NCBI GenBank assembly: GCA_021298835.1
Contig: JAJTHG010000029.1
Span: forward strand, 1-58,145
Direction: 5' to 3'
DNA from: Gemmatimonadota bacterium
GTDB lineage: Bacteria; Gemmatimonadota; Gemmatimonadetes; Gemmatimonadales; Gemmatimonadaceae
DNA length: 58,145 nt
Positions 1 through 35,089 of this stretch are shown in pieces. Position 1 is the first letter of the stretch; each line of letters starts with the position of its first letter. The notes below the pieces were generated by a model, which saw only the letters and a program-made list of their open reading frames with translations, ran no database searches and was not told where the DNA came from. The translations under genes were made by a program, and so were the position numbers.

Positions 1-3000
1 ATGGCCGGCGCGGTCACGGTGACCGTCAGAGGATAGCCGGCCCGCACCGGGGCCTGCGCCGCCCCGGTCGCCGTCGCCGTGACCGTCGTCGTGCCGGCGA
101 CGAGGCCCCGCACTCCGAAGGTCGTGCTCGCGCTGCCGACCGGGATCGTCACCTGTGCCGGCGACCCCGCCGTGCCACCCACCACCGGCACCGCCACGCT
201 CGGCGTGCCGGTCGCGACATCCACGACCACGGCCGCACCACCCGCCCGCAGCGCCTGCTGGGTCACGTTCGTGCCGGCGGCGTTCAGCGGCCCGACCCAC
301 GCCGTCCAGCTCAGGTCCGCCGACAGCGTCGTCGTCGCCGTGCTCCCGCTCGCCTCCACCCCCAGCGGCCGGATCGTCACCGTCGCCGGCGTGGGCGCGG
401 TGTAGTACTGCGCCGGCGCGGCGCTGATCGTCGCCGTCGTCGCCGTCGTGAGGCCTTCGAGGCCGCTGTAGAAGACGCTCACGCTCGAACTGCCCTGCGG
501 GATCGTCAGCGTGAGACTGCCCGTGCCCGTCGTCGTGGCGTTCGGTGCCAGCACCAGGCGTGTCGGGTCGGACGACGTGAAGGTCACGCTCACCCCGCCC
601 GCCGGGGCCGCGGTCTGCAAGTTGTAGCTGATGGACGTCGTCGTTCCCGACCCGACCTCGCTCACGCCGCCGAACGAACTGCTCGGCGCAGGATTCACGG
701 TCACCGACATCGAGTCGGACGCAAACCCAGGCACGGTCGCCACGACGAACGTCGTGCAGGGGGTCGGCGCGGAGCCGCCGTAGCCGAGCGCCGTGGCTAC
801 CTGGGTCTGCCCCTGCGGTACCAGTACTGACGTCGGCACGTTCACGCAGGCGGGATTGCGCGCCGTCAACGACACCGAGATGCCGCCGCTTGGCGCGGCG
901 AACGCCGAGCCGCCACTCGTCAACCGCGACGTGATGACCGCGCTGCTGAAGGCCGTATTCAGGGTCGCCGACGTCTCGATGACGTCGAGGGCGGCCGTGA
1001 CCGTCACGACGGACGTGCCGGTGGCCAGATTCGGGCCCGTCACCGTGACGGTGGTGGAGCCCAGTCCGATACCGTCGAGCAGCGCATTCCCGATCACGAA
1101 TCCCTGCGGCACAACGACCGTCTGCTGCAGCACGGTGACCCGGGTCGGATCGGCCGAGGTGACGGTGAGGGTCGTGCCACCGGGCGGCGCCGGTGTGGGG
1201 AGGGTGATGGGGAGCGTCGTCTGTCGCGTGAATGGTGCGTTGAGTGACAGCGGTACCGAGATCGTGTTGGTTGATACCGGCACCACCAACGAACCGTCGG
1301 TGTAGCCGGCCGTCGTTGCCGTCAGCGTGGCCGAACCTGCGGCGACACCGGTGACGGTGAACGTCGCGGTGGTACCGCCGCTGGCCACCAGCACGGTGGT
1401 CGGGGCCGCGACCGACAGCACCGACGCATTCCCCGAGCTCAGCGACACCGAGACGCCGCCGTTCGGCGCCGGCCTGGCCAGGGTCACGCGGACCTGCTGC
1501 GTGCCGTTCACGCCGACGAGTGGGGTGTTGACGAGCGCCACCGTCTGTCCGGGCAACGTCGCGGTGGCTCCGACGGTCACGCTCGGGTTGGTGCCACCGG
1601 TCGCTTGGGCCGTCAGGGACTGGCCGCCGGTGGTCGGGCCAAGGGTCCACGTGGTCTGGACGCGTCCTGTGGCGTCGGTGGTCGCACTCGACGGCGTCGT
1701 GCTCCCCGATCCGGTGAACGAGACGGTCACGCCCGGGAGGGGCGCGCCGCCAGCGTCACGAACTTCGACGACGATCGGCTGCGGCAGCGCCGCGCCCGTC
1801 AGCCCCGACTGCGCATCGCCACTGACGATGACCATCGCTGCCGGCACCGGCGCGGCGACATCGATGGCCGTCGTGGCACTGGTGAACTCGGCCTGCGCCG
1901 TCACCTGCGAACCGCCCGGTGCCGCGCCGGTCACCACGGCCTGCCGCGCGCCGGCGCTCGTGAGCGTGAGCACGGCCGCGTCGGCGACGCTCCACGTGAC
2001 CGGCACGCTCGCGGGGACCGTGCCCCCGATGGCGTCGGTGGCGGTCGCGTCGATGGTCGCGGTGCCGCCGACGACGATGTTGCCGTTCGTCGGCGTGCGG
2101 GCGAGCGTGAGCTGCGCGATCGGCAGCGGGTCGGCGGGCAGGAGCGTGCGCCGTCCCGCCGCGACGGGATCGACCAGGATGCCGGTGCCGAGCGCGACGT
2201 TGCGGCCGACGCACCAGCGATCGCCCACGGCATCGACCGCGCAGGTGTAGCGATCGCCCACGGCACCCAGCCGCACCGGGTTGCGCGCGTTGAGCACCGT
2301 CGCGGGGGTCGGCACCCACGTGCGGCCGTTGACGCTGCCGCGGCCGGTCTCGCCGTTCTCGTCGTTGCCCCAGCACCACCAGAGCCCGGTGCCGGTCGCG
2401 CGCCCGCACGTGAAGTAGCCGCCGACGCGCAGTTCGGTGTAGCGCGTGAGGCCGTTGACGGCGACGGGTTGCGGGGCCGACTGCGGGCCCGGCACGACGC
2501 CGATGCCGCCCTGCCCCACGAACTGGTCTCCCCAGCACCACGCCTGACCGTCCGTGGCGAGCCCGCAGCCGTGGAACCAGCCGTTGACGACCTGCGTGAA
2601 GCGCACGGTCGTGGCGAGCGGCGTCGGGGACAGCACGTCGCCGGCGTTGCCGGTGCCGGTCGTCCCGCCGAAGCCCCAGCAGTAGCCCTGGCCGTCGGTG
2701 GCCAGCGCACAAGCCCCGGAGCTGCCAGCCGAGACGTCGGTGAACCGGGCGCTGGTGTTGACCGGCGTCGGGACGAGGCGGGGCGCGGTGCTCCCGCTGC
2801 CAAGCCGCCCGTTCGCCGGTTCGCCCCAGCAATGGAGAACGCCGTCAACGCGCACTGCGCACGCGAATCCCTCGTACCCGACGTCGAGCGCGACGTACGG
2901 GCCGGGAACGCTCACCGCCAGTGGCGTGAGGAAGCGGTCGGTGGTGGTGGCGTCGCCCAGCTGACCGGCGTAGTTGGCACCCCAGCACAAGACGCGGCCA

Positions 3001-5321
3001 AGGTCGTCGAGGGCGCAGGCGAAGCCCAAGCCGACGCCGACCTGCCGCCAGTTGCCCGCCGGCAGGGCCACCTCGGCCTCGCGCACGCGGTTCACGTTGG
3101 TACCGTCGGCGAAGCCGGCGTTCGGGTTCGTCCCCTGCCCCCGGCGACCGACGCAGAAGACGCGACCGTTGCGCACCGAGCAGGAGGCGTCGGGCCCGCC
3201 GTCGTCGCGCAGAGCGACGAGAGGCATCGCGGTGCGGGTGCTCGTCGCGGTGACGGCCCCCACCGTGGCCGTCAGGACGACCGCACCGGTCCCGCTGCCG
3301 CGCGAGAGGGTGAAGGTGCGGGGCCCCGTGCGCGTCACGCCGAAGACCTCCGGACGATCCACGGCGAGGTCGGCCGTGACGTCCACCGTGCCGCCGCCGA
3401 TGTCGCGCACCACGAGGGTCGCCGTGACGGGACCCGTCCCGAAGGCGTACGTATCGGCGTCGGGCCCGAGGACGATCTCGATCGCCGCCGCCGCCAACTG
3501 GACGGGGACGATCACCGTGTCGGCGACGACCGGTGTGACCGACTGGACCGTGGCCACGATTCGCGCCAGGCCGCCGGCGACGGCCGTGGCGGTCGCGGTG
3601 AGGGGGCCGGTCGCGCTGACCGTCGCGACCGTCGGGTCGAGCGAGGTCCACGTGACGGCGGCTCCCGGCACCGCCGTGCCTCCGTCGCTGACGGCGGCGG
3701 TGAGGGTCGCCCCGGCGCCGACAGCGGTCAGCGTCGGTACGGGATCCGGCGTGATCGTCACGGCCACGGAGGACGCGGCCGCGACCGTCAGGGTGGCCGC
3801 TCCGCTCAGCGCGGGGGTGGTGCCGTCCACCGTTGCGGTGATCGTGGCGGTGCCCGCCGCCACGCCGGTGGCGATCCCCGTGGCGGAGACGGCGGCGACG
3901 GTCGGGGCGCTCGAACTCCACGTCACGGTGGGGGAGGAGATCGCGGCTCCGCCCGCGTCGCGGACGACCGCTTCGAACGGTCGCGTGGCGCCGACAGCGA
4001 CGGTGCCGGTGGCCGGGAGGACGGCGACCGAGGCGGGAACCTGCGCGACGGTCACGGGGACCTCGTCGCGGACGAGGACCGGCTCACGACCCTGCACCGT
4101 GACGATGATGCGGGTCTCGCCGTTGGCCACGGCCGTGACGGTGCCGTCGGCGCCGACGGTGGCGATTGCCTCGTCGAGCGAGCGGTACTCGATGACGGCG
4201 CCTGCGACGACGTTGCCGCGTCCATCGCGCGGCACGGCGGAGAGCGCGACCGTGGCACCCAAGGCGCCGAGGGTGACGGTCCGCGGCGACGCGACGACCT
4301 GCGTGACGGCACCAGCCGTGGCCGTCGCGTCGAAGCGCGCGGGCACGGCGCTGCCGCTGGTGGCCGCGGCCTGCACGGGACCCGACGTGGAGCCGAGCGT
4401 CCACGTGGCGCTCGCGCGACCGTCGGCGTCGGCGGTGGCCTGCGCGGGGGTGACGGTCCCCTGCCCGGCGTTGGCGGCGAAGGCGATCGACGCCGCCGCC
4501 ACCGGATTGCCGAAGCGGTCGATGGCGCGTGCGACGAGCGGCTGCGGCAGCGGGGTTTCGATGGCACCGGTCTGGCCGCCGCCGGAGATCGCGAGCAGCG
4601 TCGCGACCGGACCGGCGCGCGCGGTGGCACCGAAGGCGAGTGTGGTGCCGGGCAGGCTCGGCGTCTCCGCCGTCGCCCTTTGCGCACCGAGGACCCGTTC
4701 AGCGAGTGTCCACGTGGCGCGGGCGACGCCGGTGGCGTCGGTGCGGGCGGTCGTGAGGCCGGTGCCGCCGGCGTCGCGGTCGAACGTGAAGCGGACCTCG
4801 GCGTCGGGGACGGGATCGCCGCGACGGTCGAGCAGGCGCACGGCGAGGAGTTGCGGGAGGGGATCGCCGACGGGGCCGGTCTGGGCGTCGCCGGCGACGC
4901 GCTCGAGGCGATCGGGGACCTGCCGGATGGTGACTAGGGCCGTCGCGCGCAGGACGCCGAGGGTGCGGACGAGGGCGGTCACCGAGGCGACGCCGCTGCG
5001 GATGGCGGTGACGGTGCCGTCGTCGGTGACGGTCAGGCGCGTCGTGTCGCCGGATTCCCAGCTGATGGTGGTGCCTTCGGGGATGTCCTGGAAGGCGACG
5101 CCGAACTGGTCGAGGAGTTCGAGCGTGAGGCGGGTGGAGGCGCCGTCGTCGAGGGTGAGGGGGGTGGTGGAGAGTCGGGCGGTGCGGACGCGCCGGGTGA
5201 CCGCATCCTCGGGGGAGGCGATGTACTCGGCGCAGGAGATGCCGGTGGCCCCGATGGCGGCCGCCGCGACGAGGCCGCGCCACCGGCGCAGCCACCCGAT
5301 CGCCCGCCCGGTCCTCGTCAT
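1..5321 (-). CDS. Giant secreted Big_2 (bacterial Ig-like group 2) / RCC1-repeat protein. It is partial: the C-terminus runs beyond the window start and the N-terminal ATG is at 5319-5321.
   Basis: Manual minus-strand translation in the frame whose codon top coordinate is congruent to 2 mod 3. N-terminus MTRTGRAIGWLRRWRGLVAAAAIGATGISCAEY is signal-peptide-like. Big_2 motifs such as VTWSSSAPTVAAVSATGIATGVAAGTATI occur near 3840-3960. RCC1-type repeats (GLWWCWGNDENGETG, RWCVGRNVALGTG, CWG...GQLG) occur near 2200-3200, followed by more Big_2 repeats down to position 1. The ORF track lists no minus ORF in this frame, which fits an open frame running off the window edge. The plus-strand 2974..5469 and 1605..4937 ORFs are its low-complexity shadows. 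Confidence 0.7.
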   Translation of the reverse strand, partial: MTRTGRAIGWLRRWRGLVAAAAIGATGISCAEYIASPEDAVTRRVRTARLSTTPLTLDDGASTRLTLELLDQFGVAFQDIPEGTTISWESGDTTRLTVTDDGTVTAIRSGVASVTALVRTLGVLRATALVTIRQVPDRLERVAGDAQTGPVGDPLPQLLAVRLLDRRGDPVPDAEVRFTFDRDAGGTGLTTARTDATGVARATWTLAERVLGAQRATAETPSLPGTTLAFGATARAGPVATLLAISGGGQTGAIETPLPQPLVARAIDRFGNPVAAASIAFAANAGQGTVTPAQATADADGRASATWTLGSTSGPVQAAATSGSAVPARFDATATAGAVTQVVASPRTVTLGALGATVALSAVPRDGRGNVVAGAVIEYRSLDEAIATVGADGTVTAVANGETRIIVTVQGREPVLVRDEVPVTVAQVPASVAVLPATGTVAVGATRPFEAVVRDAGGAAISSPTVTWSSSAPTVAAVSATGIATGVAAGTATITATVDGTTPALSGAATLTVAAASSVAVTITPDPVPTLTAVGAGATLTAAVSDGGTAVPGAAVTWTSLDPTVATVSATGPLTATATAVAGGLARIVATVQSVTPVVADTVIVPVQLAAAAIEIVLGPDADTYAFGTGPVTATLVVRDIGGGTVDVTADLAVDRPEVFGVTRTGPRTFTLSRGSGTGAVVLTATVGAVTATSTRTAMPLVALRDDGGPDASCSVRNGRVFCVGRRGQGTNPNAGFADGTNVNRVREAEVALPAGNWRQVGVGLGFACALDDLGRVLCWGANYAGQLGDATTTDRFLTPLAVSVPGPYVALDVGYEGFACAVRVDGVLHCWGEPANGRLGSGSTAPRLVPTPVNTSARFTDVSAGSSGACALATDGQGYCWGFGGTTGTGNAGDVLSPTPLATTVRFTQVVNGWFHGCGLATDGQAWCWGDQFVGQGGIGVVPGPQSAPQPVAVNGLTRYTELRVGGYFTCGRATGTGLWWCWGNDENGETGRGSVNGRTWVPTPATVLNARNPVRLGAVGDRYTCAVDAVGDRWCVGRNVALGTGILVDPVAAGRRTLLPADPLPIAQLTLARTPTNGNIVVGGTATIDATATDAIGGTVPASVPVTWSVADAAVLTLTSAGARQAVVTGAAPGGSQVTAQAEFTSATTAIDVAAPVPAAMVIVSGDAQSGLTGAALPQPIVVEVRDAGGAPLPGVTVSFTGSGSTTPSSATTDATGRVQTTWTLGPTTGGQSLTAQATGGTNPSVTVGATATLPGQTVALVNTPLVGVNGTQQVRVTLARPAPNGGVSVSLSSGNASVLSVAAPTTVLVASGGTTATFTVTGVAAGSATLTATTAGYTDGSLVVPVSTNTISVPLSLNAPFTRQTTLPITLPTPAPPGGTTLTVTSADPTRVTVLQQTVVVPQGFVIGNALLDGIGLGSTTVTVTGPNLATGTSVVTVTAALDVIETSATLNTAFSSAVITSRLTSGGSAFAAPSGGISVSLTARNPACVNVPTSVLVPQGQTQVATALGYGGSAPTPCTTFVVATVPGFASDSMSVTVNPAPSSSFGGVSEVGSGTTTSISYNLQTAAPAGGVSVTFTSSDPTRLVLAPNATTTGTGSLTLTIPQGSSSVSVFYSGLEGLTTATTATISAAPAQYYTAPTPATVTIRPLGVEASGSTATTTLSADLSWTAWVGPLNAAGTNVTQQALRAGGAAVVVDVATGTPSVAVPVVGGTAGSPAQVTIPVGSASTTFGVRGLVAGTTTVTATATGAAQAPVRAGYPLTVTVTAPA

Positions 5322-7414
5322 CAGAAGGGCCTCGACATCGCCAGCGTCAGGAACGATTCGCGGAAAGCGGGACGCGTGGCAAACGCCGAGTAGGCGTTCC
5401 AGCGCCCCTGCAGCAGCAGCGACGCCTCGTACGGCAGCTGCCACGTGGCCTGAACCCGCGCCGCGGTGACTTGGCGGCCGGCGGTGAAGGTCCGCGAGAG
5501 CGTAGCGGACGAGTTGAGCCGGTCCTTCCACCCGCGGGCCTGCGCGCGGAAGCCGACGAACGCATTGCGCTGCGCCGTGCCCCCGGCCGGTGCCGTCACC
5601 GCCCACGACAGCGAGGGCGCGAGCGCAATGGCATCGGTCAGGTTCACCTGCTCGCTCACGGTGACGTTCTGGACCGTCACGTCGGGGGCCAGAGGGCGCG
5701 GCGCCGCGTCATCGGTGCGCTGGAACGTCCATGCGAGGGTCGTCGTCGCCCTGCGGCCGAAGACGCCATGGGTGAGACCGGCGCCGGTGTTGAGCGACAG
5801 CATCCGCACGTCCCGCCGGAGACTGTCGTCCGGGGCATCGTTGCCGACGAGATTGTAGAGCGCGTTGGCCGAGAGACTCACCGACTCGACCGGCCGCACG
5901 CTGATCGCCGCGACGTAGTTGTCGCGTCCGGTGGTGAACGTCTTCTGGCCGAGGACGTTGTCCGCCATGCGTTGCGCCTGCAGCGACAAGGTGCCGCGCG
6001 CGCCGAGGAACGGGACGGCGCCGCCGAGCATCCACGAGCGGCGGTCGCCGATCAGGTAGCCGAGCCCGAGCGATGTGTACCCGGGACCGATGCGCTCGAC
6101 CTGACCGCGCAGCGAGACGCCGCCGAGGGCGAGCTGGGCCTCGCCGTTCCACGCGACGTCGCCGTGGGTGGAGAGCCGCAAGGGCATCAGGGGATCGAGC
6201 ACGTCCAGCGCGCCCCCTGCCCCGTCAGCGATACGCGGCCGCGTGATGTCGCTCGACAGCAGGGCGCCGGCCACCTCGCCCTTGAGGCGCAGGGTCTGGC
6301 GGAAGAGCGGAAGCTCGAGTGCGAGACCGCCGACCAGATTCTCCTGAGGGCGCGTGGACGCCTGCGGCCGCGGGCGGAACGGGTCGAGCAGCGTGTCGGC
6401 GACGAGCGAGTCGAGCGCGAGGGAATCCGCGATGAGCAGGTTGCGCTCGACCGAGTTCGGGTTGTCCTTGGCATGGGCCACGGAAACGCCGACGCCGAGC
6501 CCGCTTCCGTGGCGCCATTCGAGGTTGCCGGCCGACAGGCGGCGCTCGAAGACGAGCTGGTCGCCGGGCCGCGAGACGGCACGCTGGGTGCGCCCCGTCT
6601 GCACATTCGCCTGCCACCCGCCGAAGCGCAGGTCGAGCCCTGCCCCGCGCGACCGCACACCCTGCACCGTGTACTGGGTCAGGGGTCGCGAGAAGTCGCC
6701 GAGGTAGAGCTTGCCCCAGCTCCACTCCGGGTTGAATCCGGCCTGGTTGATGTTCTGCCGCAGCTGCGTCCCTTCGGAGGAGAACAGCGCGTCGGCGGTC
6801 GCGGAGATGCCGAAGCCGAGGTCGATGCGAGGCGACACCTGGGCGCGCCACGAACTCCCCGGGCGGCGACCCGGCTGGCCGACGCTGCCGTAGGCCTCAC
6901 CTGTCAGGTTGACGTCGCCATGGACGCGCTGCCGGGCGACGCCGTAGAGGGCCCGCATCGCACGCGGGTCGCGCGGCGGCGGCTGGGTGGCCGTGGCGGG
7001 AGCCGCTCTGGTCGCTGCGGCGCGGGACCGCCACGTGGAGTCGGCGCCGATCGCCGCTCGGGGGACCGTACGAGCCGGACCCCAACGCGACCGGATGACC
7101 GCTGACGGTCCGATCAACGACCGCACGGTCGCGGCCTGCTCTGCGGCGACGGACGCCGCGGCCCCGGGCCCATCGGCGGGTCGAGCACACGGAGCGGCGC
7201 AGGCGCTGTCGCGAAGGGAGGGACGCCGCACCGAGTCCGCCGATGCAAGGCGATCGCGTCGCCCATCACCGACGAACGACGGGACGGTGTCCCGCCGCTC
7301 CCCCCGGGATGAGACACCGCGCGGAGCCGCGATCGCGGCCGCGCAGGGCACGAGCATGCAAGCGGCGAACACGCCAATGGCGGTCGCCGGGCGTCGCCGG
7401 AGGCGTCGGATCAC
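5321..7414 (-). CDS. Putative outer-membrane beta-barrel protein (~697 aa).
   Basis: C-terminus ...RESFLTLAMSRPF ends in Phe, with alternating hydrophobic residues typical of OMP barrels. The body is Gly/Ser/Thr/Asn-rich with many short beta-strand-like segments. The proposed GTG start at 7412-7414 gives signal peptide V-IRRLRRRPATAIGVFAACMLVPCAAAIAAP and overlaps the upstream stop as GTGA. The listed ORF 5321..8239 extends further but that part is Arg/Gly junk overlapping the TPR gene. An alternative start at ATG 6958 would lack a signal peptide. Confidence 0.5.
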   Translation of the reverse strand: MIRRLRRRPATAIGVFAACMLVPCAAAIAAPRGVSSRGERRDTVPSFVGDGRRDRLASADSVRRPSLRDSACAAPCARPADGPGAAASVAAEQAATVRSLIGPSAVIRSRWGPARTVPRAAIGADSTWRSRAAATRAAPATATQPPPRDPRAMRALYGVARQRVHGDVNLTGEAYGSVGQPGRRPGSSWRAQVSPRIDLGFGISATADALFSSEGTQLRQNINQAGFNPEWSWGKLYLGDFSRPLTQYTVQGVRSRGAGLDLRFGGWQANVQTGRTQRAVSRPGDQLVFERRLSAGNLEWRHGSGLGVGVSVAHAKDNPNSVERNLLIADSLALDSLVADTLLDPFRPRPQASTRPQENLVGGLALELPLFRQTLRLKGEVAGALLSSDITRPRIADGAGGALDVLDPLMPLRLSTHGDVAWNGEAQLALGGVSLRGQVERIGPGYTSLGLGYLIGDRRSWMLGGAVPFLGARGTLSLQAQRMADNVLGQKTFTTGRDNYVAAISVRPVESVSLSANALYNLVGNDAPDDSLRRDVRMLSLNTGAGLTHGVFGRRATTTLAWTFQRTDDAAPRPLAPDVTVQNVTVSEQVNLTDAIALAPSLSWAVTAPAGGTAQRNAFVGFRAQARGWKDRLNSSATLSRTFTAGRQVTAARVQATWQLPYEASLLLQGRWNAYSAFATRPAFRESFLTLAMSRPF

Positions 7415-8184
7415 TCGGCGCCCCCGGCGCGCGAGCGCGCCACGGCCTGTGCCTCGTCGAGCCGCCCCATGCGCTGCAGGACCTCGACCTCGCGGTCGAG
7501 CAGCGTGACGTCCTTCGGGCGCCGCTGCCGCAGTCGGCGCACCTGCATCAGCAGCCGCTCGAGCGGGTACTCCGGGGCCAGCCCCACGAGCGACCGGAAC
7601 GCCGTCTCGTCCGTCGGCTCGAGTTCGAGGACCGTGACCCATGCCGCGGCCGCCGCCGCCTGTCGTCCGGTCGCGGCCGCCGCGCGGGCGCGGCCGCGAT
7701 GCCACGCCACCGCGGCGGGGTCCCGCCGCGCGAGCACGAGGTACAGTCGGCCCGCCGAGTCGGCGAGGCCGATTCGCATGGCGCGGTCGGCGGCGTGGCC
7801 GAGGATGGTCGCGTTGCGCGGATACAGCGCGGCAATGACGCGCAAGCGACGGTCTCCCCATGCGCCGGCCGCGGCATAACCGTCGAGCGCCATGCGAAGC
7901 GCCTCGACGCTCTGGTCGCGCAGGCGGGCGGCCGCCGTATCGGCCGATACGCGCTCGCCGGTGACGGCGCCGAGCAGCTTTCGCTCGGCCTCCTCGATCC
8001 CGCCCAACGCTGCCGCTGACGCGCCATCGAGTGCCACACGCCGGATCCCCTCGTCGCGGGTCGTCAATGCCGTCGCGACGGCCGAGCGCGGATCGCGCGG
8101 CTGTCCGCCGGCGACCGGGACGGCAGCGGCGTCGAGGACGGCCAACAGCATGGTCGGCACCACCAGTGCCCGCGGTCGCCTCAT
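7411..8184 (-). CDS. Secreted TPR-like helical repeat protein (257 aa).
   Basis: N-terminal signal peptide MRRPRALVVPTMLLAVLDAAAVPVAG. Ala/Leu/Arg-rich helical repeats (AVAWHRGRARAAAATGRQAAAAAAWVTVLELEP...). The start ATG overlaps the upstream stop as ATGA at 8181-8184. Confidence 0.5.
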   Translation of the reverse strand: MRRPRALVVPTMLLAVLDAAAVPVAGGQPRDPRSAVATALTTRDEGIRRVALDGASAAALGGIEEAERKLLGAVTGERVSADTAAARLRDQSVEALRMALDGYAAAGAWGDRRLRVIAALYPRNATILGHAADRAMRIGLADSAGRLYLVLARRDPAAVAWHRGRARAAAATGRQAAAAAAWVTVLELEPTDETAFRSLVGLAPEYPLERLLMQVRRLRQRRPKDVTLLDREVEVLQRMGRLDEAQAVARSRAGGAE

Positions 8185-25200: not shown

Positions 25201-28200
25201 CGAACGGGGCCAGCGAGAGCGCGAAGTCCCGGGAGAACGTCAGACGCAACCCGTCGAGCGACTCGCCGAGCAGCCGGAGCGAGGCACGGGCCGACCCTTC
25301 GAGGGACACGCCACCGGCGGACAGCACCAGCGCCTCGGGGGCCTGCAGCCGCACATAGGTGCCCGTCGGTAGCGGCGCCCGGCCCGACTCGAGCGCCAGG
25401 CGAATCCCTCCGGGGCCGAATGTCCCCGTGATCGCGACGTCCCCCCGCACGACCGCGCGGCCGGCGACCACCGAGAGATCGCGAGTTGACAGACGAAGGT
25501 CCTCGAGCGTCACCCTGGCATCGATCGGTGCGGCTCCGCTGACGAGCCCACCATCCCCGGACAGCGTGAAGCCGTCCCGGTCGAGGCGGGCGGCCTTCGC
25601 CGTCAGCGTCACCACCGGTTGCGTCGCAGGAAGCCCCACGCGGAACGGCGACTCGAGGGCGATCGCCCCGTCGAGCACCGCGCCGCGCACGAGGTCCACG
25701 GTGAGCGATCCGGAGGCCGTCACCGGTGTCGCTGCTGCCGTCGCTGCTGCCGTCGCTGCTGCCGTCGACGATGCCGTCGCCGGCAGCCGCGCCGTCATGC
25801 GGCCCGAGAGCCAGATCGTCTCGCCGCTCCCTTCGACGCCGGGCGCGGGAACGTTGAAGCCGAGCTGGCTCGGCCCGGGGACGAGCGTCAGCGCGCCGAG
25901 CGAGACCGGACACTGCGGCACCAGGTTCTCGACGATGCCCGATGGCGTCCCGTCGGGCTGCAGCCGGACGCTGCCGGCAGGGAGCGGCGTGACCGTCGCC
26001 GAGGCACCCGGACACTGTCCGAACGACCCGAGCGACAGCGAGGCATCGGCCGTGACGACGACCAGCGGCCGCTTGGCCGGATCATCCGGCAGGCCACGGC
26101 TCATCGGCGTGACGAGCGAGCCGGCCAGGCGCGTGACGCGCAGTGACGGACCGTCCGCAGCGGTGCCGAGCAGCAGACTGCCGCCGCTCACCGGACGGGC
26201 CTCGATCGTGCCTACGACGTAGCCGTCGCGGAAGCCGGCGCCGAGGACGGTCAGCTCGGCCCCGCGCAGGAACGACGGCAGCGGCGCACCGTCGTCGAAC
26301 CGCAGCCCGAGGTCGAACGTGGCGCCGAACGTCCCGCGGACCGTCCCCGCGCTCCAGTCGATCTCGGTACGGGCGAGCCGGAACGCCAAGGGGCGCACGC
26401 GGAAGCCGTTCCACGTGAAGGACGCCGCCGTGAGGTTCGGGACATTGGTCTCGGGCAGCACGAGCCCGCCGCTCGACAGCACGATGTCCCGCAGCTCGGG
26501 GAGCACCAGCCCGGGCAGCTGCGTGGGAGTGATCGCCACGTCGAACTGCAGCTCCCAGTCGAAGCGGCGACGCACGGCGTCCCAGGCGATGCGAGGGGCG
26601 CGCAGCCGCCGCAACGCCACGCGCATCCCACCGAGTTCGGACTCCACCTCCGGACGGTCCGCCGTCAGGCGCGTGACCACGACCCCGGACGGCGAGAGCC
26701 GCAGCCCCACCGATGCCGTCCACGGGGCCCCGGTGGCGAGGGGCAGCTCGAGGCGACCGTCCGCCTCGACCTCGAACGACGCGGGCCCCGCCGCCCCCCG
26801 CAGCGACGCCTGCACCGCGCCGAACAGGCGGGTCAGCACGAAACGCGGCGCGCGCGGCCCCGCGTCGAGCGGCAGCACCGATTCGCCCGTCAGGTCGAAC
26901 CGCCCCGACACGTCGCCATCGGCGCTCACCGCGAGGGTGATGCCGGCCGTCGGGCCTTGCGTCGCGTCGGCGAAGCGGGTGCGCCCGCGCAGCAGCAGCT
27001 CCATCGGGCCGCCGGATCGGCGCTCGTAGGCCACTTCGTCGATCCGGAACGGGATGCCCATCGACGAGAGGTCGAACTGGTCGCGTGACGCCTCCGGCAC
27101 GGAGACGCGCACGCTGCCGGTACGCACCTCACGCGACACGGGATCGACCACGAACGAGAAGCCGGCCTGGAGACTCGGCGTCACTCCCCCGCGCGCGAGC
27201 ACCGGAAGGACGAGCGCCACCGTCGCCGTGCCGGGCGTGAAGACTCGCACGCCGGCGTCGGTGGTCTCGAAGTCCACCAGCAGGTTGCCCTGGGGATCCC
27301 GCACCTGCAGGTAGGCGGTCGCCTCGGTCGGCAGTGGCAGCCGCGCGGGGACGAGCCGGGCGACCGACTGCCAGTCGGCGTGGAAGCCCTGCGCGTCCAG
27401 CCATGCGACGCGCGAGCCTCGGCGCAGCAGCTCCGCGCGCCCCTGCTGCACGGCCGGCGGCGACATGCCGAGCCGGAAGTCGTCGACGAACCGCACGCGC
27501 AGGTCCCCGTAGTCGCTACCATCGAAGAGGAGTCGGGCGTCGGCGTCGCCGGACGCCTGCAATCCCTCGGGGGTGAGCGCGGCCTGCGCGGCGAGGTCGA
27601 GCCGCACGCCGTTGCGCAGCGTCATCGGGGCGCCGGCCGCGACCGCCTGCAGCGCCAGCCCTTGCCGACCGGTCGGTTCGAGCGACGCCTCGAGGCCGAT
27701 GGCAGCGTCGAAGGTGATGCGCCCCGCCGTCAGCTGCAGGTCGGACGCGTCGAGCGTTGCGGCGGCGAACGTGACGCCGATCGGTGCCGTCTCACCGACG
27801 AGCAGCAGGCCCCGGCCGTCCACCTGAAGGCCGGCCGACGTCAGGGCGACGCTGTTCACCTGGAAGCGCAGCAGCGGTGCCTCGCGCGGCATGTCGAGCC
27901 GCAGCGGTCCCTGGAAAACCAGCTGGCCGTCGCGGAGCCGTCCGGCGATCGCGTCCACGACGACGGCCCCGCGTGCGCGCACGGGCTGGTCCGCGAGCCG
28001 GAGCTCCGCCTCTGCGTCGAAGGCGAGGTCGATCGCCTGCCGCCCGTCCCGTTCGGACAAGCGCACCTCGAGACTGGCGGCCTGCAGTTGCGCGCCGCCG
28101 AGGGCCACAGGACACGGCAGGGCGATCCCGGAGGCGGTTCCCCGCACCAGCGGCAGGGGCCACGCGGCCGTCGGGGGCCCGACGATCGCCACGGGGTCGC

Positions 28201-30598
28201 TCACCACCACGCGGGGGGTCGCGCCGCCCTCGCAGCGAAGCAGCGTCGGCAGGTCGAAGGCGGCGCGAAGTCCGGGCACCGCAGCGACGACGTCACCCTC
28301 ATCGCCGAGCCGCGCCGCGAACCGCCCCGCGGCCCCCTGCACTTCGACAGCGGCCGTCACCGGACCCGGAACGGGCACTCGACACGGCGCCCCGAAGTTC
28401 CCGTCGACGGCGAACCGCAGCGTGTCGTGCTGCACGCGTCCGTCGGCGATGTCCACCAGCGCGGCTGCGCACGCGGGCGGCAGCCCCGGTGCCGCCCCCA
28501 GCGGCAGGCCGAGAGCGCCGGTGAATCCGAAGGTGATCGGGCTGGTGGCACCGGCCCAGTCCGCCCACGCGATGCGCTGGCCCGGCACCCCCCACTCGCG
28601 CAGGCGCAGCGGCCAAAGCCCGGCCGGTCCGATCCCGACCCGCTCATCCCCCCCGCGGGCGTCGATGCCCACGACCTCGAGCCCGGCCGGCGTGGCCACC
28701 ACGTCGCGCAGCGTGAGCGCGGGCCACCGGCGGTCGTACGACGGCGTGAAGCGCAGCGCCAGGTCGAAATCGAACCCTGCCCCCGCGCGCCATCCGAGGC
28801 GACGCACGTCCAGCCGCTCGTGACGGATACGCAGCGCACCATGCACGGACACGGCCCCGAGCTCGCCGTCCTCGCACGACGCCGACGATTCCGACTCGGC
28901 CGTCATCGCCCCCGCCGCGAGGCGAACCGGGAGCGTGGCCTCGCAGGCCGAGGGCCCCCCGAAGTGCACCGCGGCGGCGGCCGTGAGTGCATATGACGCC
29001 GAGCCGCTCGCCGGCAGCACCAGTTCGCCGGCCAGCCCGCGGAGCACCAGCCCCGCGCCCGTCGCCCCACCGGCCATGTCGAAGGCAAGGCGCTCCGGGC
29101 AGGTGGGCCGCAGGCGCACGAGGTCGCGCTCGACGATGGCGTCGAGCCGGCAGGCGACCTCGCGCTCGAGGACGGCGAGCGAGCCGCCGATCTCGAGTGC
29201 CCCCTCGGGGAAGCGGACCGTGATGCGCTGCACCTGCGCCCGGACCGCCGCGTCGCCGATCGCGGGAAGTGCCCGCCGCAGCGTCGCCGTCCCCTCGAGT
29301 CCGTCCGGGGTCAGCGGCAGGCGGCCTTCCATCGCCACCGGGGCCGCCCCGGGGAGCTGCACCGCAGCCCCGACGCTCAGCCCCGACCCGGGGTCGAGGC
29401 GAAGATCGGTCAGCCGCAGCAGCGCCGGAACGCCGAGCGCGCGCGCCACGTCGTCGGGGATCTGGCCGACGAGCCGCCCCGCGAGCAACCGGACGGCCGG
29501 CAGCCGCAGCCGATCGAGCACCAGCCCCTCTGCGCGCAGCGGAATGCGGGCCGCGACCGGCGCCTGGAGTTCGAGCACGAGGTCGCCGCGCACCGAGACG
29601 CCGAACTCGTTGTTGAAGGGTGCCACCTGTGCGCGGCGCAGGCCGCTCAGGTACGCGATCCCGGGGGCGATCTCGAGCCGGTCGGGGAGGTCGAGGGTCG
29701 GGAGCGGGGTGGACGCGTCGCCGGCGCGGAAGGCGAAGAGCTCGGACGACGCGCCCGACCTCGTCACGACCCGACCGGACGCATCCACGACATCGACCTG
29801 CCAGACGTACTCGCGGTCGTCGCGCAGCGGAGGAGCGTCCAGCGGATACAGCAGCAACGGCGACCGCACCGGCACCGTGCCGTCGAACAGCGGGGCGTTC
29901 GCCTGCATCGCGACCTGCAGCGCCTGCTCGGGCTGTCGCTCCACGACACGGACCCGGTACTGCAGCGTGGACGTCGGCGAGGCCCTGATGGGCATCCATT
30001 GAAAGGCCGGCTGCGTCCCCTGCACGCGCGTGCCGTTGGCGGGACTCAGGAGCTGCGGCGGTTCCGGCAGCCGGATGTCGCGGTCGGTGCACTGCTCCGG
30101 ACCGAGCGCAGCCCCGCCGACGCCCGCGAGGACGCGCGCACACAGCGTGAGGCGCCCCTCGGGCAGCTGGCCGGTCCTGATCGCGGCGCCCACGACCGAC
30201 TGGTCGCTCGACACCGTCTGCCACTCGAGCACGTCGATGAGACTGAAGACCTGCGACGACGGCCCCGCAGCGAATGACAGCAGCGGGCTGCGGACCCTGC
30301 CGATCTCGCGCCCGTTCACCCGGACGAAGGCCTCGAGGCGGTAGTCGAGCGCGGCCGCCCCGGTGTAGAGCACGTTGAGGTATGCGGCCTGCGGGTCCCG
30401 TTCCCAATCGGTCGTGAACGGGCTCGGCTCCGACCGGACGAACACGGTCACCGACGTCGTTGGCTGGGCACCCAGGGCCCCGGCCCACAGCACCCCCGCC
30501 AGGGCCCCGGCCGCCACCGCAAACCCAGCGCGCCACATGGCGGACACGGCCTCGCGAGCCGTGTCCGTCTCCAGCGCCTCCTTCCGAGCCCGGAACAT
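10199..30598 (-). CDS. Giant (~6,800 aa) secreted modular repeat protein of unrecognised family. It has an N-terminal unique region, 5-6 tandem ~750-aa modules, and a C-terminal region with a coiled coil plus Ig/FN3-like domains.
   Basis: A single uninterrupted 20.4-kb ORF with normal amino-acid composition, unlike its R/G-rich shadows. Signal peptide MWRAGFAVAAGALAGVLWAGALGAQP is preceded by a 20-aa extension from the first ATG at 30598 (TTG at 30607 in the track). Repeating motifs recur with ~750-aa spacing: ...P[QR]CP[VIL]..G...L.PG....G.GVP (5 copies), DLPVRF[ED]QLELTR.G..G.VEVG (5), and AYLD..GLHPDD.LA.LP.LPDSIALP..DVAYVRLKD (6). The C-terminal part has V.A.D.AGN.S Ig/FN3-like signatures and ends without a beta-barrel. 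Confidence 0.75.
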   Translation of the reverse strand: MFRARKEALETDTAREAVSAMWRAGFAVAAGALAGVLWAGALGAQPTTSVTVFVRSEPSPFTTDWERDPQAAYLNVLYTGAAALDYRLEAFVRVNGREIGRVRSPLLSFAAGPSSQVFSLIDVLEWQTVSSDQSVVGAAIRTGQLPEGRLTLCARVLAGVGGAALGPEQCTDRDIRLPEPPQLLSPANGTRVQGTQPAFQWMPIRASPTSTLQYRVRVVERQPEQALQVAMQANAPLFDGTVPVRSPLLLYPLDAPPLRDDREYVWQVDVVDASGRVVTRSGASSELFAFRAGDASTPLPTLDLPDRLEIAPGIAYLSGLRRAQVAPFNNEFGVSVRGDLVLELQAPVAARIPLRAEGLVLDRLRLPAVRLLAGRLVGQIPDDVARALGVPALLRLTDLRLDPGSGLSVGAAVQLPGAAPVAMEGRLPLTPDGLEGTATLRRALPAIGDAAVRAQVQRITVRFPEGALEIGGSLAVLEREVACRLDAIVERDLVRLRPTCPERLAFDMAGGATGAGLVLRGLAGELVLPASGSASYALTAAAAVHFGGPSACEATLPVRLAAGAMTAESESSASCEDGELGAVSVHGALRIRHERLDVRRLGWRAGAGFDFDLALRFTPSYDRRWPALTLRDVVATPAGLEVVGIDARGGDERVGIGPAGLWPLRLREWGVPGQRIAWADWAGATSPITFGFTGALGLPLGAAPGLPPACAAALVDIADGRVQHDTLRFAVDGNFGAPCRVPVPGPVTAAVEVQGAAGRFAARLGDEGDVVAAVPGLRAAFDLPTLLRCEGGATPRVVVSDPVAIVGPPTAAWPLPLVRGTASGIALPCPVALGGAQLQAASLEVRLSERDGRQAIDLAFDAEAELRLADQPVRARGAVVVDAIAGRLRDGQLVFQGPLRLDMPREAPLLRFQVNSVALTSAGLQVDGRGLLLVGETAPIGVTFAAATLDASDLQLTAGRITFDAAIGLEASLEPTGRQGLALQAVAAGAPMTLRNGVRLDLAAQAALTPEGLQASGDADARLLFDGSDYGDLRVRFVDDFRLGMSPPAVQQGRAELLRRGSRVAWLDAQGFHADWQSVARLVPARLPLPTEATAYLQVRDPQGNLLVDFETTDAGVRVFTPGTATVALVLPVLARGGVTPSLQAGFSFVVDPVSREVRTGSVRVSVPEASRDQFDLSSMGIPFRIDEVAYERRSGGPMELLLRGRTRFADATQGPTAGITLAVSADGDVSGRFDLTGESVLPLDAGPRAPRFVLTRLFGAVQASLRGAAGPASFEVEADGRLELPLATGAPWTASVGLRLSPSGVVVTRLTADRPEVESELGGMRVALRRLRAPRIAWDAVRRRFDWELQFDVAITPTQLPGLVLPELRDIVLSSGGLVLPETNVPNLTAASFTWNGFRVRPLAFRLARTEIDWSAGTVRGTFGATFDLGLRFDDGAPLPSFLRGAELTVLGAGFRDGYVVGTIEARPVSGGSLLLGTAADGPSLRVTRLAGSLVTPMSRGLPDDPAKRPLVVVTADASLSLGSFGQCPGASATVTPLPAGSVRLQPDGTPSGIVENLVPQCPVSLGALTLVPGPSQLGFNVPAPGVEGSGETIWLSGRMTARLPATASSTAAATAAATAAATPVTASGSLTVDLVRGAVLDGAIALESPFRVGLPATQPVVTLTAKAARLDRDGFTLSGDGGLVSGAAPIDARVTLEDLRLSTRDLSVVAGRAVVRGDVAITGTFGPGGIRLALESGRAPLPTGTYVRLQAPEALVLSAGGVSLEGSARASLRLLGESLDGLRLTFSRDFALSLAPFAVASGRADLFRDDKAVAYLTPAGIFPVNILAALPPLPDSIALPSFDVAYVRLKDPAGQLVIDAGLVADDRLQLATRRNAPLQFVLPGLARAPGEAPPVVDADMSLVVDARTMLPVSGRVSAAAPAGAPPLLSLADRGVPVGLRRVTFSADPAGARVVVAGDAELPAALRNLPVRFEQLELTRSGIVGAVEVGVVDQRYVPGRTPVGEVALDERNPESLRLALTGARVEFGATPGLQVSGRLTSSLFTPPGATGASVLFVRGRIGTTGAALTVDPQSAPGGALALGPLAFTLEPVAGQPAAAFEADATRARLVLSGVLRVPGLGAGLEVSAAGLAIGTDGLTMPQLRVRGPTGLDVLGTRLQFGDENGAGLTLALERTPSNTFELVAEGQARLMGSPAQGALVQCPAAAGVPPQAVAVSLRLGGAAGIRGRIDNAVPRCPIALGPLTLVPGATTFGINEAVTAGGPPVALWARGEMSASLDVLAGGATGRASGTLTMDLAQGRILDGALSFGAAVALDLPRRNPVFRFTGVSARLDRTGVVVDGSGQLPLGGGLPPVSVQFENLTFDVASLGITAGRAVIGASVGLEARLSGSRLDWQVVDPAAPDPAGATFARLALPAQVAIGQGGLALSAQASARFGIAQDAPSDVAVAFVDDFTLGLEPFGVQRGRAELRSAAGRRIAYLDRSGLHPDDILAALPTLPRRIGLPDEATAYLEVTDEQNRLRVQSSIDGNHVRIRPVPGFGGVRLVIPALREGSAPAPTVDVDFDLLVNARTFAVMEGAVGVTAPDGRPPLLAAQVAGGALEVRQLAFAAAVGGYRLTAGGRLRLPPALQALDLQVQDLVVGPQGLSGTVELGTYDRTFVAGRRVVATTTVFEDATDTLTLQLTGGRFTIAGGQASLALSGLMRATLFATGTGPARLVPPLFFTGTMGPVGGALDVATTTGTIQTIALGPAQFDLQALGGQPALAATVGAQGMSVRASGVLRVPSLSPGFRVEVAALSMGTSGVTVGSVRVQRPEDAELEALGTKLALKDSTGPSNVYPALALERTPGGAWVLAVNGRVTLRDDVYTGSSGACRSAPGRNQVVTVAMRVGTDGTFTGRFDDVLPQCPIAFGPLALTPGRVSIGVGVPLPADAGVAAAPAAWMRGSMTASFPGAQPGQSVTASGQVLLDLATPRLLDGAVALAQPARIGVPFTNPALQFTVTQATIDRRGLVLGGQASLATAAGAAVTANLENLTLSLATGQVTDGRARFTSRVALRATVAAGGLTWVAESPDAPAPTGSYARLVLPGAAGFDRHGFQLDGTATAAVVVADRPLATATASFADGFTLGLSPVAVTAGRVDFIATQRRVAWLDADGLHPDDVLALLPPLPDSIALPSWDVAYVRLKDQDGNAVVSASAAGTNAYRLTTRAAGRGLQFVLPGLKASPTGVAPVVEASVDANFNSQTWALMSGSVVAEAPAGSPALLSLASQGIPVELRRVGVAAASGAVTVTVGGRAQLPAALRDLPVRFDQLELTRDGLRGRVEVGTYDAQFVAGRPVVASVPLLQGADQLTLDLTGARLELGGAQRGVSLSGVVRTTLFAAPGAAGAPVARPIFYTGSVTAQGTAFTLDPSQFAGRELPFGPATFRLQAVGNSPALALEADADAVTLTASGELRVPAIGPDFAIRLAGFRIGTRGVVAPQVSVAGTPPALTLAGARVTPDPAAIGLERETDGAWAIRLGGQAQLLGDVTAGALASCPGSPATAQAVRLDLRLSTAGTIRGRLDDVVPRCPVTIGEVVLTPGTVSLGFGVPAVAGGPAVPVWMRGALSLDLRALSAEATGRATGQLTLDLSRGVVLDGRLDLGAQVALDLPRQSPLLRFRDVRAALDRTGLTFSGVGRLAMPAGLDPVTATFTDVVVPFAQPRIASGSIRVEGRAAVQVRLDAGAFTWEVVRPDAALPTTTFARVAVPGAITVDAEGVHFAGEAIARFSATGTGTPSDVTVRFTPDFAVGLAPVAVQGGRAELWARSSRVAYLDRTGLVPVNVVALLDDVPDVLQLPDSNTAYIRIRSADARRDFLFDVSVSGSSMLLRTWPGQRVPLVLPALRSAGGAVPEVQVAFDVTVNVATRQVTEGGVSALAADGAPALVSLASLGVPLEVRQLGFAAGPAGYRFTVGGRAELPPALASLPLEVRDVEVGPQGLRGTVELGTWDATYIAGRTAVASATLWSDGKDTLAIALTGARLTLAGAQSSLGLSGRLLATPFADRSADPSAPVPPLFFTGTASRAGAQLAVALTGPGAPLIRAGPLEVALASVGGAPPLAFTANAQRAALVLSGEARIPSLSPTFALRVGGFAVATDGISVQTVQVASPTAAEFEAFGRKLSFKDTTAGGPEPVYPTVGLRRLASGAWEIAVNGRITIRDDLAAGSFASCSASSGVRAQVVGVDLRVSTAGAFAGRFDNVAPRCPLSFGAVTVTPGVVSIGIGVPVPSGRTTDRTPAAWLDGTVSVDLPAPSGTGTTRLTGSALFDLASPALLDGSIATAQPVRIGFPAANPVFTFDLTQGRIDRRGIVLSGQGTLASTTGATVRATFTDLALAFDGLVVTGGSARLDNSVALTATVGDSGLRFRAEAAGAPAPGGTYARLVLPSAVTFGAAGLGVAGTASAALVVNNQSFLQADAVFRDGFTLGWSPVAVSAGAVDFRTSNRTVATLDAQGLHPQDVLVVAQNVIPDSIAIGGGFDVAYVRLKQGGNLLVSTGYDVPTQRLTISTLAGTEGIPLVLPSLRPEPGQPVSLTNAPRIVRVRGSLTTHLPTGQFVSGELGIKAAAGQAIPGLDQLGLPITIDSIGVASVSGQWTVGISAAAKLPAPLSNLNLRFDNLTLGPQGISGAVSVGHVDNAFVASRPALTTASFQSNGEEALGLDLTGARLEFSAGTPPTIRLVGRLRSALFPGAEGAAAPLFVTGTAGPSGASLTVSQTATGGQGLPIGPAFLNLTTVTAAVLQGDFRVTLDGTLTVPAASNTFVVAVNGLVLSTRDGISAPTMSLSAANGPQVTLFGLQFRLQDQTVTTNGQPQLYRAVAFRRVGQPRVAEVELAGTVTFLEANNTSTFYGLTVRTDGTVGLAGANLLSRPIDIVANQVRLKTASIANNALSVTVGVRLPAPLDSRGEQDASVTLNRDGTVQGSALVSVVAPEPTLTAAPTPGRRWAVGPATIHLRALDVSFDFSSQFRTNSWARAAFDVYLGPPRQGTPSDPAPRIRIGELGANDRTLSGFRLGFDGTPLVDGVSSAGEFTFDFQVLKLKVKGVSAPAVTPNLSLSANDTLVRFSGDLSVNLGSTVSGSLVFEDFAVLKSGAVAIKPGGIRTGTFTIASVVTATVKDPIWKTSTTPFKAAISRASAPKQVSKDAPADSSEQIDVLTQLEFAASVDILPGTGKGGGAAFSGGIEKFQLLGKAGGGVVVSLRGATIKMPEAGLDVSGNFFLNTFPTPGDFDLETSLSGTVSKLGSVKLFGVVESRTTGPEPLRAGIFVAASIAGGVTLVPPVPVASLLEFGGGFFYKPRTEWITSVQDLAQVPQTPAEGMAMLAGPKGTPTFALMLYAKLAAPPTPLSAVTGRVLLTVTDAGLALNGRFVFLSQDRGLQADGTLTLGFRPMQFYGTLTLRGCFGEIEAKVCDGLVPNPGRTVTAADKDAIRRKTAVVLEGSVTAYVFADGRWAVVGSIDATVAGLISGSARFAVQPAGMYFNLKIKPLAMAIPLLEVDTISIRAFWLRDEDLLGAAGRVKVTLKPFGLTLVGIDMTGALLVRPVFKVYAAVEVFVGPIPIILPERAAIGVWASLSPADGIRGGLGKDPQMEALLKRTEAIADELDRARNSTEAELAAVPEMEPLYSDTELAAAFEASVGDIRQIMRIASSSPGAVFSILALYTYLCGVEELPGRPNPCGEPGGPYPGSGNFVAALDTTGEGLVRDSLRAAVVAMNDLRPALQQARAAAGALTNRLTPFVPSFTVPAIDTTAVQGDTSDVVSSAPPSSLAGSKGESGLGPLNETITAAQLVSGPTMSARPDAVRNNAATAATSDAQGAAVAAGTRLRIDELEQVLASVRGATRSAASGSLMATASAYAAVVTRIDRVLGQVGNHLARRRNEFRGEVAALDADRPLASQSIAARTSTLNAGEVTRLITQRTDRLQALTQKPPAARPTGATDAMYANQLGEDLWWGTFRAGYESARKSTDSLLVALETRRATSFGIARANAMRLAAALDRLNQVQADAAGALYDLYDRILLTDGTLTPAQVATFTTRKAELARELTVPTVSGFQVTTSVDGYLVTTTYRWNAQHPDGIHEFQIRDNVAGTATGFMSLGAPTTLRGGVTNQRAAAGSATQPSVAAGSVRTATFTTWRAARVGNPPPPSGLVTVAARGGAGYRGQQSGVVTLPVVRWDASTQVRPTTTTAGADVTPPAFVLAPRWEGGRRQATTPFVTWVRDPRDVILRWDARDHESGIRDSRLTLFRASGFIDKSVASSSSFTLLENARSVGGRQWIGLPSLDLREDAPPIHVTVEVENGSGIPTAAMSDGVALDTTGPAWPANARFVENALAIGSGSGGTLGGTLGGTLGVTLGGTLGGTPGTVTGFPRSTGTPTAPARLGDACLGMRPTMMPLRSAAPAPAVVSFRVPTATDTRSGVQRFAWRLDTLPVAAYDSATWQADTWQTLRSLDGPSASTMDPGTWARARRAFERDWTLYGVALDVAGNVSPVLASTPFRFPDPTGPADPVYCADLVSAGTFVLSPLRLSRDNETGVAGYRYGIWDVTANAWVRELPGGAAVDWPSLVSGISVNLPPVGLTDGHSYRVALQAVNGAGQASVYGAAGDMLWDGSVPATPTIASARLPWLASCGTVSSGTRCLNASFAAPADPHSGLLEIEWRFHWNVLAALWGTPAPSLGGTLTPGATSLSVAVPTGDASQAAPVLMIRSRNGAGMWSDWASRGIVIEQGPPSMQLPDGTTGAVMRDRAAATATSGAGMTTSGARATTSTRQGWPP
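11438..11506. repeat. 12-bp tandem repeat (about 5.5 copies of gccgccaagtgt) inside the giant gene.
   Basis: Direct reading of the sequence: tgccgccaagtg repeated. On the coding (minus) strand it encodes the flexible linker GGTLGGTLGGTLGVTLGGTLGG. Confidence 0.8.
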
Positions 30599-30701
30599 GG
30601 GCGGCAACAGTACTCGCCGTTGTCACCGCTTCCTCAATCAAGTCAAACGCATGTCCCCAAACAACTTGTGCCGTGCCAAGCAGGACCCGGAACGCCCCCG
30701 G

Positions 30702-32000: not shown

Positions 32001-32037
32001 GGCAATTGAGAGGGGCTCTGGGAAACGGGACCGCGCG

Positions 32038-32632: not shown

Positions 32633-33780
<1,148 letters not shown>

Positions 33781-33803
33781 GGGGGACCAAGCTAACTTTG
33801 CGC

Positions 33804-35021: not shown

Positions 35022-35089
35022 CCATCGCCCCCCGCGGGCGGTAGGCTTCCCGCGTTCCCGGCGTGCCGTCGTGCGCGCCAGCGGTCGTT

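Follow-up and report, generated by a model that had tools for sequence, protein, structure and literature searches.

To our knowledge, only a handful of systems, nearly all from Proteobacteria and Bacteroidota, are known to move very large proteins across the bacterial outer membrane or to attach them to it. The TpsB transporters of type Vb (two-partner, TPS) secretion combine POTRA domains with a 16-stranded barrel, while ushers pass folded immunoglobulin (Ig)-like pilins and MtrB sheathes a protein. Slam, of the type XI secretion system (T11SS), has a tetratricopeptide repeat (TPR) plus barrel arrangement, and takes lipoprotein and soluble cargo from the periplasm (PMC8406197). Here we analyze a 58,145-nt stretch of chromosomal DNA with 73% GC, called the window below (contig JAJTHG010000029.1 of assembly GCA_021298835.1, from a Gemmatimonadota bacterium). 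It carries five consecutive minus-strand genes, A to E, among them those for a giant protein (A) and for a predicted 26-stranded outer-membrane barrel (D). We put at roughly 45% the probability that these genes belong to a dedicated, previously undescribed envelope module of phyla of the Fibrobacteres-Chlorobi-Bacteroidetes (FCB) group, in which a TPR-assisted barrel exports or anchors the giant A. The module in the window is its largest known form. The genes, their overlaps and the parts of A are as follows, with residues of A counted from the ATG at 30538:

10199-30598, minus strand: gene A, an open frame of 6,799 amino acids (aa) from the ATG at 30598 used by gene callers
29639-30466, minus strand: A-N1, the conserved N-terminal head (about residues 25-300), a two-domain Ig-like module
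15959-28141, minus strand: A-R, a tandem array of about six repeats, each 660-677 aa long (about residues 800-4,860), delimited by self-BLAST in chunks
13679-15958, minus strand: A-C1, a conserved, predicted all-beta module (about residues 4,860-5,620) with an invariant GGGFFYxP motif
10202-13678, minus strand: A-C2/C3, about 460 aa that are probably helical, then Ig/fibronectin type III (FN3)-like domains and a Thr/Ala-rich tail
8181-10202, minus strand: gene B, 673 aa, a signal peptide and five or six tandem FN3-like domains (Pfam fn3, internal repeats)
7411-8184, minus strand: gene C, 257 aa, a signal peptide and a short TPR-like domain (weak TPR_2 match)
5321-7414, minus strand: gene D, 697 aa from a GTG start at 7414; a signal peptide, a linker and a barrel, ending in ...SRPF
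1-5321, minus strand: gene E, the first 1,773 of 1,996 aa, with no stop before the window edge
10199-10202, minus strand: ATGA, overlap of the A stop and the B start, read in the sequence
8181-8184, minus strand: ATGA, overlap of B and C, read in the sequence
7411-7414, minus strand: GTGA, overlap of C and D, read in the sequence
5319-5323, minus strand: TGATG, overlap of D and E, read in the sequence

Set beside the described systems, the module would appear to act in the way of systems that devote a barrel to a giant Sec-dependent protein. It seems to stand outside every described family, since it lacks the defining features of type Vb systems, of type IX secretion (T9SS) with PorP, of chaperone-usher, type XI and type I adhesin systems, and of synthase-dependent porins. 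The likeness to type Vb pairs such as FHA/FhaC and CdiA/CdiB lies in the gene for a very large, Sec-dependent, beta-rich protein beside a dedicated barrel gene, and in a locus without an inner-membrane or ATPase component. Neither D nor 30 members of its family match Omp85/TpsB (ShlB/FhaC) in Pfam or NCBIfam, however, and the model of D contains no POTRA folds. By the same databases A has no TPS (haemagglutination activity) domain, its N-terminus being the Ig-like two-domain head, and the additional FN3 and TPR proteins of the module are without a TPS counterpart. No Usher or PapD Pfam match occurs in the operon. Unlike an usher, D has no plug, N-terminal or C-terminal domain and is accompanied by no PapD-like chaperone, and its partner is one giant polypeptide, whereas an usher serves polymerized subunits. 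LptD and MtrB, with 26 strands, and the SlpA of Deinococcus have the same or a similar strand number and enclose or carry another protein; barrels of this LptD/MtrB/SlpA type surface when either D or A is used as query of a structural search. The comparison also took in AsmA/TamB-like bridge proteins, which are marked by AsmA/DUF490-type domains and a beta-taco groove fold. Families of the RTX, ABC and HlyD kinds are absent from the operon and its flanks, and type I (LapA-type) adhesins are unlike A with its N-terminal Sec-type signal. Literature searches returned no description of an A-B-C-D module.

The five genes are tightly packed, all frames being open and each pair joined by an overlap of 4-5 bases. 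The GC content of third codon positions (GC3) is 0.87-0.91 in the frames listed, and 0.91 in A. At 73% GC, stops should come about once in 63 codons. The probability of 6,800 codons without one is hence about 1e-47, and the frame of gene A is not a product of chance. The antisense open reading frames (ORFs) of up to 2,372 aa that lie above A and E, on the plus strand (12887-20005, 1605-4937 and 2974-5469), are shadow frames and not genes, because their codon-position GC mirrors that of the high-GC coding strand. No terminator-like site was seen at any of the four junctions, in promoter and terminator scans that are uninformative at 73% GC. The operon ends with E, since a convergent TPR gene comes next on the sister contigs. 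A pseudogene or relic is ruled out by the intact frames and by near-identical sister contigs from independent samples, among which the sole difference noted is an in-frame GGTL repeat; the product of gene C is encoded identically on many contigs (NCBI metagenome-assembled genomes (MAGs), ENA, JGI metagenomes). A preliminary description of this DNA had proposed five coupled genes, Sec-type signal peptides on all products, and domain labels for B, C and E. The overlaps are exactly where it placed them, in frames with coding-type GC3, and the frameshifts or stops that it had named as refuting are not seen, the frames being intact here and across the sister contigs. All five products do begin with a Sec-type signal sequence, called by eye from the translations, that of E being refined to the lipoprotein type. 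Pfam likewise returns FN3 for B and Big_1/Big_2, RCC1 and MG4 for E, while its TPR match to C is weak.

Protein D is confidently predicted to be a 26-stranded outer-membrane beta-barrel of an orphan family. In its AlphaFold2 (AF2) model the barrel occupies residues 164-697 (nt 5324-6925), some 530 residues, with a predicted local distance difference test score (pLDDT) above 90. It follows an Arg/Ala/Pro-rich linker of about 120 aa that is disordered in the model. The protein ends in a C-terminal Phe, and signal peptides are found across the D family. Searches of Pfam and NCBIfam assigned D to no family, and no specific structural relative was found; the largest structural overlaps are with the FimD/PapC ushers, MtrB and SlpA, that with FimD/PapC being confined to the barrel wall. 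Gene callers and NCBI record P0001 put the start of D at an internal Met near 6958 (545 aa), which deletes the signal peptide. The GTG at 7414, which overlaps the stop of C, is the better start, because it alone among the possible starts yields a hydrophobic leader and because orthologues start at the stop of their TPR gene, as a 43%-identical one does. Close homologues have similarly long N-terminal linkers. The stretch of about 150 aa from this GTG to the internal Met has a weak or atypical coding signature (GC3 0.78, with a GC content of 0.75 at second codon positions).

The D family comprises at least 32 proteins in a word-indexed search, one of them a TPR-barrel fusion. A scan of one genome per species gave 37 D loci, all in MAGs, from Gemmatimonadota, Ignavibacteria, Zixibacteria and Bacteroidota, and a KSB1 locus was added by a separate lookup. 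By tblastn with the window's proteins, A (C-terminal parts), B, C and D stand in the same order in all Gemmatimonadota loci long enough to tell. In Ignavibacteria and Zixibacteria the genes immediately upstream of D are A and B, and a TPR protein of about 690 aa is encoded between B and D or convergently to D. The genes for A and D, with or without B, are also found together in KSB1 and Bacteroidota; in KSB1 and in one unclassified MAG their order is rearranged. Relatives, too, retain starts and stops that overlap or nearly touch, and gene B is detected at 30 of the 37 D loci, most of the remaining seven being truncated by contig ends. A minimal three-gene form is present in locus L036, with an A-like protein of 1,610 aa, B (680 aa) and D (538 aa), and a short A-like gene sharing just the N1 head stands with B and D in several other loci. 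In the fusion protein, P0009, the TPR part is N-terminal and the barrel C-terminal. The window and its relatives thus combine four elements: a 26-strand barrel of the D family, a protein of FN3 repeats, a TPR protein and one with the N1 head. The conserved core of the module, as judged from gene content, is A, B, C and D. Of the five-gene unit first proposed, then, the tight coupling stands, and E drops out of the conserved core as an accessory specific to Gemmatimonadota. The proposal that the giant has a barrel and a TPR protein of its own as partners fares well: the co-localization of the genes supports it across phyla, as does the TPR-barrel fusion. It also remains the case that no component matches a described secretion or adhesin family in family searches. 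The surface fibre, adhesin or sheath of that description is one candidate structure for the large proteins, which may reach the cell surface, with D as their putative translocon. An obligate A-D partnership would fit the rarity and comparable size of the two families (at least 32 D entries and 64 A-C1 clusters).

Several side observations were made at these loci. In several MAGs the module is present as two paralogues, each on its own contig (L023/L025, L020/L026, L018/L024 and L027/L032). In a Bacteroidales MAG (L039, 10220-11455) the barrel gene appears to be split into two ORFs of 202 aa with no A or B nearby, and is possibly a decayed copy. In Ignavibacteria and Zixibacteria (L032, 11709-16951; L033, 11739-14679), the genes just 3' of the barrel gene encode T9SS-tailed proteins. 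These neighbors comprise beta-propeller proteins and a CotH kinase that has a lamin-tail domain; the module proteins themselves are without such tails.

Gene A has three candidate starts, the TTG at 30607 (6,802 codons) and the ATGs at 30598 and 30538, so that its product has 6,779-6,802 aa, the hydrophobic signal sequence of which ends in ...GALGAQP. On sister contigs it is called as 6,791-6,799 aa. This in-frame length polymorphism arises because the copy number of a tandem GGTL peptide repeat, at about 11459-11503 (residues 6,346-6,360 or so), differs by one unit between otherwise near-identical contigs of different samples. Searches of Pfam, NCBIfam and PDB sequences with A gave no match except a weak Ig one, and PDB searches with an A-N1 profile and an R+C1 profile returned nothing meaningful. 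In the word-indexed search residues 1-330 found at least one homologue; residues 4,861-6,360 found none among the matches listed, presumably because low-complexity candidates swamped them.

The N-terminal head is the part of A that is most widely kept. An alignment of 13 sequences from five phyla shows the motifs PSPxxxxWE, RTGxLPEG and PxFQWxP...YVWQV, with a weak Ig_Rha78A_N match in all 13. No other part of A is shared with the A-like proteins of the minimal clusters, which are short (1,610 aa), and just residues 38-270 align to the A-like protein of L036. Between the head and the repeats lies the N2 region of about 500 aa. The A-R repeats are mutually 30-50% identical, and in a family architecture map their number is about six here versus usually 1.5-3 in relatives. 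An exhaustive HMMER scan with A-C1 found 64 clusters among 1.84 billion representatives. Nearly all full-length members have 3,100-5,070 aa and share an N1-N2-R-C1 plan, and the A of the window, with its six repeats, is the largest family member seen. Ten members were looked up, and the two that bear a name are called "hypothetical."

The AF2 model of residues 4,480-5,640, built on a 22-sequence alignment and of moderate confidence (pLDDT 73.7, predicted TM-score (pTM) 0.46), has 54% strand, long hairpins and alternating hydrophobicity; A-C1 is predicted as long antiparallel hairpins. Foldseek ranks LptD, SlpA, ushers and the ApoB100 beta-belt highest, at TM-scores of just 0.1-0.2, so the fold class is read as an all-beta meander, and no homologue is found. 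The model raises the possibility that some of A is a barrel-like or membrane-associated structure in its own right. A helix starts near residue 5,599, shortly before the end of the model at 5,640, and the remainder of A-C2 is probably helical, to judge from its Ala/Leu/Arg/Glu-rich composition. In A-C3 each Ig/FN3-like domain is preceded by a D-x-T-x-P-type motif, and DxTPP...DxESGI columns are conserved in the A family alignments A3 and A4.

The product of B is expected to be rod-like. That of C, presumably periplasmic, is orthologous to the C-terminal end of the TPR proteins of about 690 aa in other phyla. By BLASTP it matches the N-terminal TPR part of P0009 with E=2e-17 and the C-terminal end of the L032 TPR protein with E=3e-7. 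The TPR proteins of L032 and L033 have strong TPR Pfam matches, and C has a sub-threshold match to the PgaA TPR (14.5 bits vs a cut-off of 367). Protein E, full-length at 1,996 aa on the sister contigs L001 and L002, has a lipoprotein signal (...ATGISC-AEY) and after it, by Pfam, Ig-like domains of the Big_1/Big_2 kind, a beta-propeller of the RCC1 kind and domains like MG4/CarboxypepD_reg. Seven of the ten Gemmatimonadota orthologues examined visibly have a lipobox Cys with (A/K/D)(D/E)(Y/F/V) after it. The leaders looked at are those at the E-like gene starts of L007, L012, L016, L018, L020, L023, L024 and L026 and at 5220-5321 of the window. This acidic stretch after the lipid-bearing Cys recalls what we take to be the lipoprotein export signal of surface lipoproteins in Bacteroidota. 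No more than about half of the Gemmatimonadota loci have an E-like gene 3' of D, and other phyla lack one, which suggests that E is a lineage-specific lipoprotein accessory.

A working model can be proposed from these data. Sec would export the products, and the periplasmic TPR protein C would dock below barrel D and pass partner proteins on to it. The position of C at the periplasmic face of D is suggested by the P0009 fusion and by analogy with PgaA/BcsC and Slam. Barrel D would then serve as export pore and/or outer-membrane anchor for A, probably through the N1 head and the FN3 rod B; the head is the obvious candidate for this contact, because it is the sole part of A kept in every variant beside B and D. 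The repeats, C1, the helical stretch and the Ig domains, which make up the variable body of A, would project as a long surface structure. How long this body is would depend on how many 665-aa repeats it has, six here and about two in most relatives. Lipoprotein E would be a lineage-specific partner, and D may display it as well. A more far-reaching version, in which D and its TPR partner are the outer-membrane translocon and anchor of a new Sec-dependent FCB secretion or display pathway unrelated to types I-XI, threading or holding giants through the N1 head and an FN3 adaptor, is put forward tentatively, and on balance we doubt it. Several points weigh against a TPR-assisted export or anchoring of A. 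The TPR match in C is weak, the cluster has no energy source or inner-membrane component, and every relative retrieved comes from a MAG or metagenome assembly and not from an isolate. Moreover, it is by prediction that A, B and E leave the periplasm.

Upstream of the module, the window contains two further features:

30702-32255, minus strand: SPFH/Band-7 gene, 517 aa, about 100 nt upstream of A
32633-32706, plus strand: tRNA-Arg(CCG), overlapping the 3' end of a minus-strand GT4 ORF (32680-34098)

The SPFH gene was considered as a sixth member of the operon and rejected, as the upstream neighbors differ in L036 (LOG, DUF4412) and L048 (beta-lactamase). It is probably unrelated to the module, although it may be co-transcribed with A in the window. 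Given the overlap with the tRNA gene, the end and start coordinates of the GT4 glycosyltransferase ORF are doubtful. The right half of the window is given over to standard housekeeping genes, and encodes Rho, Fpg, dehydrogenases, an aminotransferase, a GH77 enzyme, a major facilitator superfamily (MFS) transporter, an M28 peptidase and two transposases, besides the one tRNA-Arg. Rho (34582-36474, plus strand, 630 aa) has an N-terminal extension of about 260 aa ahead of its RNA-binding domain. At the right end, the adjacent transposase ORFs 56474-57247 and 57293-57976, both on the minus strand, match DDE_Tnp_1 and DDE_3, and the pairing suggests insertion sequences.

The main rival to a barrel that exports or anchors A makes A an integral protein of the outer membrane, or one that spans the envelope. 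The C1 module of A, with the repeats perhaps joining it, would then form barrel- or belt-like amphipathic sheets in or on the membrane, while the helical stretch and Ig domains would reach into the periplasm. The module would be a tether or scaffold like SlpA/OmpM-type proteins, or a sheath, and D, C and B would be assembly partners and not a translocon. We think this unlikely. The TM-scores of 0.1-0.2 and the pTM of 0.46 do not establish barrel closure, the putative barrel would be internal and not C-terminal, and soluble beta-sandwiches equally predict alternating hydrophobicity. Nor did Pfam and NCBIfam scans of A find an SLH or OmpA-like peptidoglycan-binding domain. A rather small chance is left to a type XI, Slam-type TPR and barrel whose true cargo is lipoprotein E and/or the FN3 protein B, flipped to the surface, A being a neighbor that uses another route. 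The likeness is a periplasmic TPR element coupled to a barrel, fused in P0009 in the order of Slam domains with a weak TPR_Slam match (E=0.0096), together with the adjacent cargo genes that Slam systems also have (PMC8406197). Lipoprotein E is translationally coupled to D, with acidic residues after the lipid-bearing Cys where visible. E, however, is missing from every other phylum and from roughly half of the loci in Gemmatimonadota, unlike A and B. Slam requires a 14-stranded DUF560 barrel with an N-terminal TPR, whereas D has 26 strands, neither it nor any of 30 family members matches DUF560, and its TPR partner is a separate gene except in P0009. The module partners include a protein of 4,000-6,800 aa, and the module belongs to FCB-group phyla, whereas the T11SS is described as proteobacterial (PMC8406197).

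Another rival is a giant protein for gliding or adhesion that depends on T9SS and is anchored by a PorP/SprF-like barrel, as in SprB-SprF of Flavobacterium, its sorting signal being too divergent to be recognized. The two share a broad taxonomic group and a giant repetitive surface protein gene beside a barrel gene. The arrangement echoes cargo whose C-terminal domain (CTD) is of type B, with PorP-like proteins (PMC9143113). The module is confined to the FCB-group phyla, where T9SS occurs, and Por_Secre_tail genes lie just 3' of D in Ignavibacteria and Zixibacteria. Nevertheless the chance is slim: Pfam and NCBIfam detect no type A or B CTD in A, B or full-length E, although the same tools find CTDs in neighboring genes (the Pfam CTD model matches those of L032 and L033). 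PorP_SprF models match neither D nor 30 of its homologues, and PorP-like barrels are much smaller than the 26 strands and roughly 530 residues of D. A very slender chance, finally, goes to polysaccharide export by the TPR protein and barrel, with A, B and E as matrix proteins that bind the polymer. Synthase-dependent porins (PgaA, BcsC, PelB, AlgK/AlgE) do share a TPR scaffold and an outer-membrane barrel, split or fused, but porins of the PgaA/BcsC/AlgE type have 16-18 strands against the 26 of D. No synthase, glycosyltransferase or polymer-modifying gene is conserved beside the module in the other loci examined, and in the window the SPFH gene and an opposite-strand tRNA gene separate the GT4 gene from it. 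A porin-cytochrome (MtrAB-like) arrangement was rejected because none of the five products has a CXXCH motif.

Even on a conservative reading, the locus yields two new protein families and a corrected start for the mis-annotated D. An orphan family of 26-stranded barrels is paired with an orphan family of proteins of 3,000-6,800 residues in at least five poorly cultured phyla, including Gemmatimonadota, Ignavibacteria, Zixibacteria, KSB1 and Bacteroidota. The minimal three-gene variant offers a tractable version of the module for structure prediction and heterologous expression. If the barrel is indeed a translocon or anchor, it would represent a new route of outer-membrane export or display, and would open a way into the surface biology of bacteria that abound in soil and sediment.

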